The position numbers were made by a program. Positions 3,001 through 6,000 of a stretch of DNA of 64,000 bases are shown here, piece after piece. Source of the stretch: Escherichia coli (lineage in GTDB: Bacteria; Pseudomonadota; Gammaproteobacteria; Enterobacterales; Enterobacteriaceae); NCBI RefSeq assembly GCF_044324875.1, contig NZ_CP172186.1; one strand, 5' to 3'. Positions within the stretch are counted from its first letter, which is position 1, and each line of letters begins with the position of its first letter.

Positions 3001-6000
3001 TGATAACTGTACTTATGTCACCAGGAAGGAATCCAGAGTGATAATTCGCGAACAGTAATGAAATACATGTTATCATTCTTCTGTTGGTGACTTTGCCGAC
3101 TCAGATATATACTATCTGTATGTCGTGCATTATATATTAACGATACGCAGAGGTGTGTATATGGGCAGTGTTACAAAGAAACCGTCACCTGTTGTTATTA
3201 TTAAGAAAAAAAGACGAATTCTTTCTCATCAGGATGATGCCGTACAGGCAGTTCCTGATGATATAAAACCAGCGCCAGTAATGGAATTTAAAACCGACTC
3301 ATTACCTCCTGAAATACCAGCCACAGTGGCCGGTTCCCCGGAACAACAGAAAAAAACAGGACGTAAGAAGAAGAAAAAAAAGAAGAACAATAGATGGAAT
3401 CATGAGTTTATCCGACACAGTCTGGACTGTGTTAAAAAAACATTCCCTCAGTTACGGGCTGAAGAGGGGGGATATCATGCATTTAAAATAGGCATCTCAA
3501 AGGATGTCATGGCTTTTATTTCGTCCAGTCCTGAGTGTGGACTAACTGTAAAAGAATGGAATTGTGCTGTAAGGATGATTACTGGCGGTTACAAATATCT
3601 GCAGCGTATATCAGTCGCAGGTACTCCGCGTTATGGTCTGGATGGCAAAGTTCATGGAACTGTAACGGAGGAAGAAGCGCTGTATGCGCAGGCAAAACTT
3701 GAAAAACACACGCAGCGTTATAACGCCAGGATGAAAGAGACAGAAGATGCTCGTTGCAACCAACCATCGAAAACTGTTACACCGGACAGCAATTTGAAGG
3801 ACGCCTGCATTCATAACGGGGCATAATTATGTGAAATGCTGTCCCGCTATGGAATCAGAATTGAGTAACGACACGAGGTTTTGATGATTACTGTTATTAT
3901 TTCTGAGGTGGATGGCTGGCGTGAATGGAAACACCGCGCCCGAACAAAGGATGCACAGACAGCCATCATCCGGGCTATGAATAAACATTTTCCACGATCT
4001 TACAATTTTATCCCTGATGATATTGATAATGCACCTGTATTATTTGCAGCTGTAACACGTACACCGAACGTGAAAATAACCGGTCATATCTGGAAACCTA
4101 TGTGGAACAGGGGAATTTGCTGGAACGTCAAAGGTCCGCCAGTAATCATCACGCTCATCCAGGGGGCCGCTTGGAATTCGGAAAATAAACCACGTTAAGA
4201 CTATTTGGGGTTCTAAGCCGAAAACCTAGAAAATTCCGTAACCAAAGCCAGTAATTGACAGATTTGCATGACGTTGAATAGGTGACGGGTTATGTGACGA
4301 AATCTGATGCAGAAATCGTTGTTTCAGTGACAGTCACTCAATCGGTCGTTTATGTGACAACCCATGCCGTTACTGGTCGCGGAAAAATCCAGGTTTCGGG
4401 GTTTGAGGCTCAGTGGAACAATAACCGCCGTTAAGCGGTCATTTTAAATAGCCAAAAATCAACCAGCCAATTTACATCGTGAATCTGCGTTCTTGGCTAT
4501 CTGTTTTGGGGGGGGCCAAGTTGGCTTTACTCATCCTGGCCGTTTGCGGAACAAACGACGTTGTTGATCTCAACAGATTGATTTACCTGTTATTGACCAT
4601 TCAATTGAACCGCTTAACCGCCTTTTGAGTTCCACTACTCCCCAAACCCCAAATAGCTGTCTAGCGCGAAAAATCACTGCCCGTAACGTATCATATGGCT
4701 GGTACGAATAAATTCTCACTTACTGCACCATAAACGTACACGTCAAAACCTTCCAAACATGCTTCAAAAATCAACAAATTCGCTGTATCGGAAATTTTGG
4801 CGTTTCCGGCGTACAACCCCGATTAGATATAAATGAATTAACGTGTGTGGTTTATTGGTCTCTGCCTTCTCCAGCAATGACGCAAGACTTTGACATACCA
4901 TCAAAAAAATGATCGGCGAGCTCCAGAATTCGTGGATTATGAGTTGTAATAATAACGGTAGGGCAATGCTGCCGGATATAGGTAATGATCTTTATCGCGA
5001 GTTCTTCGCCAATAGAGGCCGTGGGTTCATCAAGTACGATAATCTTTTTCTTACGGGCTAGGGCGCGGGCTATGCATAATCGCTGGATCTCTCCACCACT
5101 CAAACCACTACCCAGAGGATTAATATCCCGGTCTAGGAAAGCAAGGAAATGTTCTCCGCAGTCCTCTTTAATTAACCCCAATGAATTCAGGATGCAAAAC
5201 AGTTCATCATCGGGAAGAATGTCATCGGTTCCATACAGAATATTATCACGAATAGTTCCCTGCACCAGAACGGCTTTTTGAGGCACAACAGCAACGTCCT
5301 CCAGGATAGACGCACTCAACTCTGTGTTCTTCGGTTCAAGCCCCAACATCCGGGCAAACTGCCGTGTTTCATTAGCCCGGTAGCATGAACCATTATCCGT
5401 CAGCCACTCTACTGGAGACGCCGGAAGCTCGTTGCCGAAGCGGCGTTCCACCGCTCCCAGCATGACGTCCTGTACTGTTTCACTGTTGAAGCCGCCCGTA
5501 GTGACCGCCCAGTGCAGTGCCTCACGGTCACAGCAGTCCAGCGCGAACGTGACTCGCAGTTTTTCTCCGTTATCACAGCGGAACTCGAACCCGTCAGAGC
5601 ACCATCGTTGATTGCTTTCTTTCACGGCCACTTTGCCAGTATGTGCCCGCTTCGATGGCGGTACAGCGGTTTTTCGCTCAAGCAACAGCGCATTCTGGCG
5701 CATGATCCGGTAAACACGTTTGGCATTGATCGCAGGCATACCATCAAGTTCGTCCTGTCTGCGAAGCAGCGCCCATACCCGACGATAACCATACGTGGGC
5801 AGCTCTCCGATAACATGGTGTATACGGAGAAGTACATCCATATTATCGGAGTGACGGCTGCGGCGACCATCTTTCCAGTCATCGGTTCGTCTGAGAATGA
5901 CGTGCAACTGCGCACGCGACACCCGGAGACAACGGCTGACTAAGCTTACTCCCCATTCCCGGGCAATAAGGGCGCGTGCGCTATCCACTTTTTTGCACGC

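Follow-up and report, generated by a model that had tools for sequence, protein, structure and literature searches.

On the reverse strand of a 64,000-nucleotide stretch of the Escherichia coli contig NZ_CP172186.1 (hereafter, the window) lies a reading frame that begins as the transposase of an insertion sequence and ends as the nucleotide-binding domain (NBD) of an ABC exporter. Such a frame could be a gene with a function of its own or a by-product of rearrangement; the questions that it raises are from which transporter its second half derives, how the two halves came to be joined, and whether the product could still do anything.

Architecture of the Chimeric Reading Frame

Exactly one ORF is listed over the interval concerned, and it starts with GTG:

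4852..5988, reverse strand: chimeric ORF of 378 aa (ORF listing, Pfam, NCBIfam and comparison with both parents)

Its residues 1–222 are those of IS2 OrfB, and its residues 223–378 correspond to residues 419–574 of an ABC exporter. The NCBIfam model of IS2 TnpB (PRK09409, 301 positions) matches residues 1–227 with 506.7 bits, Pfam recognizes HTH_21 at residues 50–103 and the integrase core (rve) at residues 124–222, and ABC_tran follows at residues 227–324 (E 4.2e-11), covering only profile positions 56–137, that is, the part after the Walker A motif. A preliminary description of this DNA had read it as IS2 OrfB fused in frame to the C-terminal half of an exporter-type NBD; the single ORF and the Pfam and NCBIfam matches bear this out, and the similarity of the tail to ABC NBDs is significant. 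The switch that it placed after about residue 225 is real, while its exact position is between residues 222 and 223.

All of the motifs quoted in that description are found in the ORF, which keeps the Q-loop (VVPQK at 234), the signature (LSGGE at 296), the Walker B motif (IIVLDE at 316), and the H-loop (TTHN at 348) of an ABC ATPase. The Walker A motif, or P-loop, is absent; in the parent protein it reads GFGKST at residue ~388, upstream of the retained residues 418–574, and nothing of the exporter membrane domain is present either. The length of the ORF is not a matter of chance, since two genuine coding segments are fused in frame.

The Truncated IS2 Copy

The transposase half belongs to an IS2 copy that has kept its left end and lost its right end:

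5324..6402, reverse strand: truncated IS2, nt 1–1079 of 1331 (alignment to K-12-type IS2)
6362..6402, reverse strand: left inverted repeat (IRL) of IS2, an exact 41-nt match with its outer end at 6402 (sequence match)
5946..6311, reverse strand: orfA of IS2 (InsC-type, HTH_Tnp_1), apparently intact (ORF listing, Pfam)
5988..5994, reverse strand: A6G slippery heptamer AAAAAAG (read from the sequence)

Over nt 1–1079 the copy is 95.3% identical, without gaps, to K-12-type IS2, and the characteristic arrangement of orfA, A6G site, and orfB is present together with this high nucleotide identity. The heptamer is the site at which IS2 shifts by −1 from orfA to orfB, and its G opens the GTG start codon of the chimeric ORF. 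The right-hand 252 nt (nt 1080–1331), right inverted repeat (IRR) included, are missing, and only the left flank of the element is retained. No IRR belonging to this copy was found; the sole IRR in the 64-kb window (43271–43310) is that of a second, inverted IS2 at 39530–43310, which is separately interrupted. The loss of the IS2 right end and of the exporter N-terminus, both asserted in the preliminary description, is therefore borne out. The truncation also leaves the DD(35)E triad incomplete: D198 is kept, while E233 of the 301-aa OrfB (D198 + 35) lies past the breakpoint at residue 222.

The Parent of the Exporter Half

The preliminary description suggested that the tail could derive from a bacteriocin or microcin export gene, CvaB/MchF-like for example, and that it should be traceable by protein comparison and by intact homologues on related plasmids. 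Both can be found: a tblastn search with the tail returned, at ≥99% identity, one class of non-scar records, and the tail is identical (100% at the protein level) to residues 418–574 of the 574-aa WP_001554923.1, annotated as "ABC transporter ATP-binding protein" and encoded, among others, by plasmid p2-LC-1302-2020 (NZ_CP091758.1; locus L003). At the DNA level, 4651..5328 of the window corresponds to 9675..8998 of L003 with 99.7% identity, so that the exporter part of the window is:

4852..5328, reverse strand: 3′ remnant of the ABC exporter gene of a lasso-peptide cluster, codons 418–574 plus the stop codon (identity to the parent)

The general expectation of an antimicrobial-peptide export context is thus upheld, the parent being the last gene of a lasso-peptide cluster; the CvaB/MchF-like identity is not. 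Fragments of cvaB would be expected on a ColV-type plasmid, and the tail does match bacteriocin-export ABC models weakly (TIGR01193, 43 bits; TIGR03796, 57 bits). The parent itself, however, shows ABC_tran as its only Pfam domain, with no Peptidase_C39; with TIGR01193 (the peptide-cleavage/export family) it reaches 43.3 bits where the cut-off is 523.85, and its scores with all bacteriocin-exporter NCBIfam models are far under the cut-offs. No HlyD/CvaA-type membrane fusion protein gene stands beside it, its neighbours being a putative cyclase, a B2 protease, and a 62-aa ORF, that is, lasso-peptide genes rather than cvaA or cvaC. Since the C39 domain is lacking, the scores are far below the cut-offs, and no CvaA-like neighbour is present, the parent is not CvaB/MchF-like, and the proposal that the transposase of IS2 made an adjacent deletion into a peptidase-containing exporter of that type is scarcely credible (for the deletion itself, see below).

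In a phmmer search of all PDB chains with residues 1–334 of the parent, which comprise its membrane domain, the best matches were exporters of the Atm1/ABCB7/ABCB6 type, and no McjD chain appeared at E ≤ 1. By its context the parent presumably acts like a lasso "D" exporter; it is not placed in the McjD family.

The Intact Lasso-Peptide Cluster

In L003 four co-oriented genes follow one another: a 62-aa ORF, an Asn-synthase-related protein, a lasso B2 protein, and, last, the exporter. The B2 protein is recognized both by NCBIfam NF033537 (lasso_biosyn_B2, 82.4 bits against a cut-off of 33) and by Pfam Transglut_core3 (60.3 bits). The Asn-synthase-related protein passes the cut-off of Pfam Asn_synthase (26.8 bits against 21), its scores with the NCBIfam models specific for lasso peptides and macrolactams being far under theirs (57.9 against 300 and 19.4 against 525).

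The 62-aa ORF is a candidate lasso precursor. It reads ...KSTN up to the presumed cleavage site and GTGGGSIIEGSY... after it, with Thr at −2, Gly at 1, and Glu at 9; the predicted core begins GTGGGSIIE, and the rules for lasso precursors (Thr at −2, Gly at 1, Asp or Glu at 7–9) hold for it. The predicted core of 33 residues, GTGGGSIIEGSYTVYRCDGGSVPSRPFGPPFCP, would have a Gly1–Glu9 ring and two cysteines in its tail, cleavage site and ring being deduced from the sequence. In a Salmonella salamae plasmid, where the cluster DNA is only 87.8% identical, 57 of the 62 residues of the ORF are conserved.

The intact cluster is rare among complete E. coli genomes (24 of 5,426, ~0.4%), where it is found on plasmids, and it occurs in 23 PLSDB records; the exporter protein is encoded on >1,700 contigs of a larger collection, and its relatives in Salmonella (85–89%), Klebsiella (70%), and Erwinia (67%) bear generic names throughout. 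Neither the predicted core peptide nor the four RefSeq protein accessions occur in the literature searched, a limited collection from which novelty is not thereby proven; the topical literature on lasso peptides in it concerns only work of the MccJ25/MccY type. The parent cluster appears to be uncharacterised.

The Junction

The two parents meet in a short overlap:

5324..5328, reverse strand: junction microhomology AACAC, 5 bp (alignment to both parents)

Homology to IS2 spans 6402 to 5324 and homology to the exporter gene begins at 5328, and the overlap, AACAC, is found in both parents (GAAGAACACggcgg in IS2, ATTAACACagagttg in the exporter gene). These five bases give N221–T222 of the ORF, and the reading frames coincide at the junction because both parents read N–T across AACAC. 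A microhomology of 5 bp would be expected at a random joint in ~0.3% of cases (our own arithmetic). The junction is not an artefact of assembly, since it is inherited in many plasmids and genomes (see below).

The preliminary description attributed the joint to an IS2-mediated deletion. Adjacent deletions made by a transposase leave the IS end, and thus a complete IS, in place; here IS2 breaks off at nt 1079 of its 1331, 252 nt short of the end, and IRR has been lost. A case of the adjacent-deletion type is available for comparison: in plasmid pZ1323HEC0011-2 (locus L010) the IS2 is complete. It belongs to the same subgroup as the IS2 of the scar (97.8% identity) and abuts or sits in the gene of the lasso cyclase, similarly oriented, with no 5-bp target duplication and with the remainder of the cluster gone. 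Since the breakpoint of the window lies inside IS2 and on a 5-bp microhomology, whereas an adjacent deletion would keep the IS end, the joint was probably made by illegitimate recombination and not by the transposase, and the attribution to an IS2-mediated deletion does not hold.

According to the mechanism proposed here, AACAC would have guided a RecA-independent illegitimate recombination between the interior of IS2 and the exporter gene, whether as a deletion or as a join between two molecules. In this event IS2 would have lost its right end and the exporter gene its 5′ 1,250 nt, and the remainder of the cluster would have gone as well, leaving an IS2 cut at nt 1079 in the same orientation as, and in frame with, exporter codons 418–574; the scar would then have been inherited and fixed in the lineage of ColV-type IncF plasmids. 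The order and the number of the events are inferred. Neither the ancestral intermediate (a complete IS2 beside an intact 99.7%-type exporter gene) nor the empty site was found in the plasmid records searched, and no relocated IS2 right end or other part of the lasso cluster was found within the window. Only 27 plasmid records contain the part of the cluster that lies upstream of the breakpoint, and the scar is in none of those listed; the cytochrome b562 flank of the scar occurs in 86 records, almost all of which carry the IS2 scar.

A longer history can be imagined, in which IS2 was first inserted in the cluster in the same orientation, homologous recombination between two IS2 copies then brought in the cytochrome b562 island as the left flank, and a small internal deletion finally joined nt 1079 to the exporter gene. 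The complete IS2 in the cyclase gene of L010 and the second, inverted IS2 of the window show ingredients of the kind that it calls for; the cluster of L010, however, is only 93% identical to that of L003, as against 99.7% for the scar, and an intermediate of the right type was not found in plasmid records. We regard this multi-step origin as rather unlikely. It differs from the single microhomology-guided joint in the number of steps only. L010 was also considered as the direct ancestor of the scar and was rejected; because its cluster is just 93% identical to that of L003, it represents an independent event.

The Other Border of the Lasso-Derived Segment

Downstream of the stop codon of the chimeric ORF, the sequence passes through the native flank of the exporter gene into two miniature elements:

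4821..4851, reverse strand: native 3′ flank of the exporter gene, 31 bp (homology to L006)
4651..4820, reverse strand: initial 170 bp of a miniature element of ~272 bp whose terminal repeats are of the Tn3 type (GGGGTTGTACGCC...) (homology to L003 and L007)
4398..4650, reverse strand: second miniature element, 253 bp, with 38-bp Tn3-type inverted repeats (GGGGTTTGGGGAGTAGTGGAAC...GTTAAG) (repeat comparison)

Homology to L006, an IncK2/Z copy of the cluster, stops at 4821, 31 bp beyond the stop codon, and homology to L003 and L007 stops at 4651; in L003 the ~272-bp element is complete (9506–9777), with Tn3-type inverted repeats of 40 nt. With the second miniature element the lasso-derived segment reaches its other rearranged border. 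This element shows no 5-bp target duplication (TATTT versus GAAAC); after it, at 4397–4205, stands the right-hand portion of a further copy of the first miniature-element family. The lasso-derived segment is thus 4651..5328 only, cut on both sides.

Distribution and Annotation of the Scar

At least 72 plasmid records share the 2.2-kb stretch 4400–6600 at 99.4% identity; almost without exception they are large, conjugative plasmids of the ColV type (IncFIB/FIC) from extra-intestinal E. coli of birds and humans (e.g., pAPEC-O2-211A-ColV). The junction itself, counted by full coverage of a 251-bp probe spanning it, is present in 105 of the 5,426 complete E. coli genomes, against 24 for the intact cluster; the scar is therefore commoner than the locus from which it derives.

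Its annotation in RefSeq is inconsistent. Some records have WP_032297276.1, a 165-aa "ATP-binding cassette domain-containing protein" whose start lies within IS2-derived codons; on pSA186_2 the PGAP pipeline gives a single pseudogene, "IS3 family transposase, frameshifted", which in the coordinates of the window is exactly 4852..6311. The ORF is mentioned neither in the pS88 transcriptome paper nor in the BEN2908 paper.

Could the Fusion Have a Function?

Deprived of E233 and IRR, the fusion would be incapable of transposition, and without membrane helices and a Walker A motif it could neither pump nor give immunity. Any product would be driven by the IRL promoter of IS2, to judge from what is generally known of this element, and the likely products would be OrfA alone or, by a rare −1 frameshift, a fusion of OrfA with OrfB residues 1–222 and exporter residues 419–574, of ~485 aa. 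A scan of 4300–6700 for promoters and terminators gave counts at or below the shuffled expectation.

A selected role of another kind has nevertheless to be weighed, either as a trans-inhibitor of IS2 (a truncated transposase able to bind DNA) or as an NBD fragment modulating a related exporter. OrfA and the DNA-binding N-terminal part of OrfB are indeed kept, the ORF is open in most copies (the protein P0244, of 383 aa, has 123 member sequences), and the scar outnumbers the intact cluster; the success of the ColV plasmids on which it hitch-hikes, however, accounts for its frequency, and variants in the databases (P0003, P0004, and P0006) are frameshifted at the C-terminus or shortened further. 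When the ORF of the window is set against that of the common scar type (loci L001 and L009), six non-synonymous codon differences and one synonymous difference fall in its IS2 part, and a single, synonymous one in its ABC part. The 6:1 ratio fits relaxed constraint on the IS2 part; for the tail the changes are too few to judge, and constraint there is possible. Given also an NBD deprived of its Walker A motif and the lack of any promoter-like signal above the shuffled expectation, a selected functional fusion is very improbable.

The chimeric ORF is, by these observations, almost certainly a non-functional pseudogene scar. As for its nature and parentage taken together, it is highly probable that it is a dead scar, fixed in the ColV lineage, whose halves stem from the interior of IS2 and from the exporter of a lasso-peptide cluster; that the microhomology guided their joining is probable. 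More tentatively, it may be the fossil of an uncharacterised lasso-peptide ("microcin-like") plasmid system of E. coli and Salmonella, in which case the ancestor of a large ColV lineage would once have made or exported the peptide until IS activity destroyed the cluster; we hold this to be quite possible, somewhat short of an even chance.

Significance

An origin in a dead joint explains both the misleading 378-codon ORF and the two conflicting RefSeq annotations, and lineages of ColV-type plasmids can be traced by the exact breakpoint. The window itself holds an ordinary pseudogene scar, which matters little: an in-frame chimeric ORF from an IS-truncated gene is a familiar kind of pseudogene, and RefSeq already flags a pseudogene or partial CDS here; for the origin from a lasso cluster, no description was found in the limited collection of literature searched. 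The more useful by-product is the intact, apparently unstudied lasso-peptide cluster on plasmids of E. coli and Salmonella, which on the present evidence has been destroyed repeatedly by IS2.

Comparison with Known Systems

With CvaB and MchF, which serve the export of colicin V and of class II microcins, the parent exporter shares the motifs of an exporter-type NBD and a plasmid-borne antimicrobial-peptide context; it differs from them in its length (574 aa against ~700 aa), in the absence of a C39 domain, and in the absence of an adjacent CvaA-type partner. Another comparison is with McjD (PDB 4PL0), the ABC transporter that exports microcin J25, itself a lasso peptide, and protects the producer from it: the parent, too, is a half-transporter of ~575 aa and the last gene of a proteobacterial, plasmid-borne lasso cluster, and it presumably has the same role. 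The order of the cluster is nevertheless A-C-B-D, as compared with mcjA/BCD, its membrane domain gives no match to McjD at E ≤ 1, and the window retains only the final 157 codons of the exporter gene.

As regards the rearrangement, L010 exemplifies the adjacent-deletion type, with a complete IS2 and a changed flank, from which the junction of the window differs by its IS2-internal breakpoint on a microhomology. The scar as a whole resembles the IS-truncated pseudogene remnants of large IncF virulence plasmids, which are likewise fixed, inherited scars amid insertion sequences and miniature elements and are annotated by PGAP as pseudogenes or partial CDS; it departs from the usual remnants of this kind in that its two fragments chance to be in frame, and a long, misleading ORF is the result.

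The Parent Lasso-Peptide Cluster and Its Decay in Other Plasmids

The exporter gene whose 3' remnant is joined in frame to a truncated IS2 in the window (the scar; 4852-5988, minus strand) belongs to a four-gene lasso-peptide cluster, which is carried by IncF and IncK plasmids of E. coli and by a Salmonella salamae plasmid; the copies relevant to its preservation and decay are the following.

L003 (p2-LC-1302-2020), 5363-9474: intact four-gene cluster
L008 (S. salamae plasmid CP053317.1), 6458-8169: exporter gene, present as two overlapping ORFs of 295 and 299 aa
L010 (pZ1323HEC0011-2), 7519-8849: complete IS2 inside the lasso cyclase gene, in the same orientation

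Intact copies of the cluster are also present in L006 (an IncK2/Z plasmid) and L007, and a further four-gene copy in L008 (at 4070-8169). The precursor is predicted to consist of the leader MKKQSKEVKTSGSEHREIMIEIDASKSTN and the core GTGGGSIIEGSYTVYRCDGGSVPSRPFGPPFCP, the latter with a putative Gly1-Glu9 ring and two Cys in the tail; it is represented by only 4 sequence clusters in a collection of 5.8 billion proteins, and no mention of the cluster was found in the literature searched.

In the Salmonella version the exporter gene is apparently frameshifted, unlike the precursor, cyclase and B genes, which are all open. The L010 locus, whose cluster is a variant 93% identical, carries an IS2 of the subgroup to which the scar IS2 belongs, flanked by CTCGC and CTGGT, without a duplication; a second IS3-family element interrupts the stretch from the precursor ORF to the start of the cyclase gene, and the remainder of the cluster is absent. 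This is IS-driven decay of the same lasso cluster, in an independent event.

Divergence and Surroundings of the Scar

Between 4400 and 6600 the window differs from the common scar type (L001, L002 and L009, related ColV-type loci) at 14 positions, 10 of which lie within the IS2 part (5324-6402). Because at these ten the window has the canonical IS2 base at six and is derived at four, the mixture points either to two diverged scar lineages or to patchy conversion by other IS2 copies.

Beside the scar, miniature inverted-repeat elements derived from Tn3 are stacked (compare L003, 9506-9777), and farther out lies an acetyltransferase gene.

Window 4205-4820: the stack, comprising
a truncated element of the 272-bp type (GGGGTTGTACGCC... 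repeats);
a complete element of the 253-bp type (GGGGTTTGGGGAGTAGTGGAAC...GTTAAG repeats), with no target duplication;
a further 272-bp-type copy, represented by its right part
Window 2468-3058: uninterrupted ORF of 196 aa, hexapeptide/serine acetyltransferase

Both miniature-element families have matches of 72-97% identity in hundreds of plasmids from several enterobacterial genera. The acetyltransferase gene is split by IS1 in the common ColV relatives (L001, 9671-10368; L009, 16869-17860), with which collinearity is absent upstream of 2780; window 1-1718 matches instead an IncFII-family repA region (95% to L006). Related ColV plasmids also carry two paralogous carbamate kinase/DUF1116/FdrA/DUF2877 gene sets (L001, 1-6004 and 15955-22491), each with a LysR regulator, and the scar region lies between the two sets.

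Other IS2 Sequences in the Window

Window 39530-43310, plus strand: another IS2 copy, 98% to K-12-type IS2, orfB intact
Window 28972-30117: distant IS2-like sequence, 71% identity over ~1.15 kb
Window 52698-52785: IS2-like fragment of 88 bp, 82%

A 2.44-kb element interrupts this second IS2 after nt 109; its three ORFs (133, 115 and 512 aa) have an IS66-family layout, and a 9-bp duplication corresponds to IS2 nt 101-109. This IS2 and that of the scar are mutually inverted, with their IRLs facing inward, and they bracket ~33 kb (6403-39529) in the manner of a decayed composite transposon.
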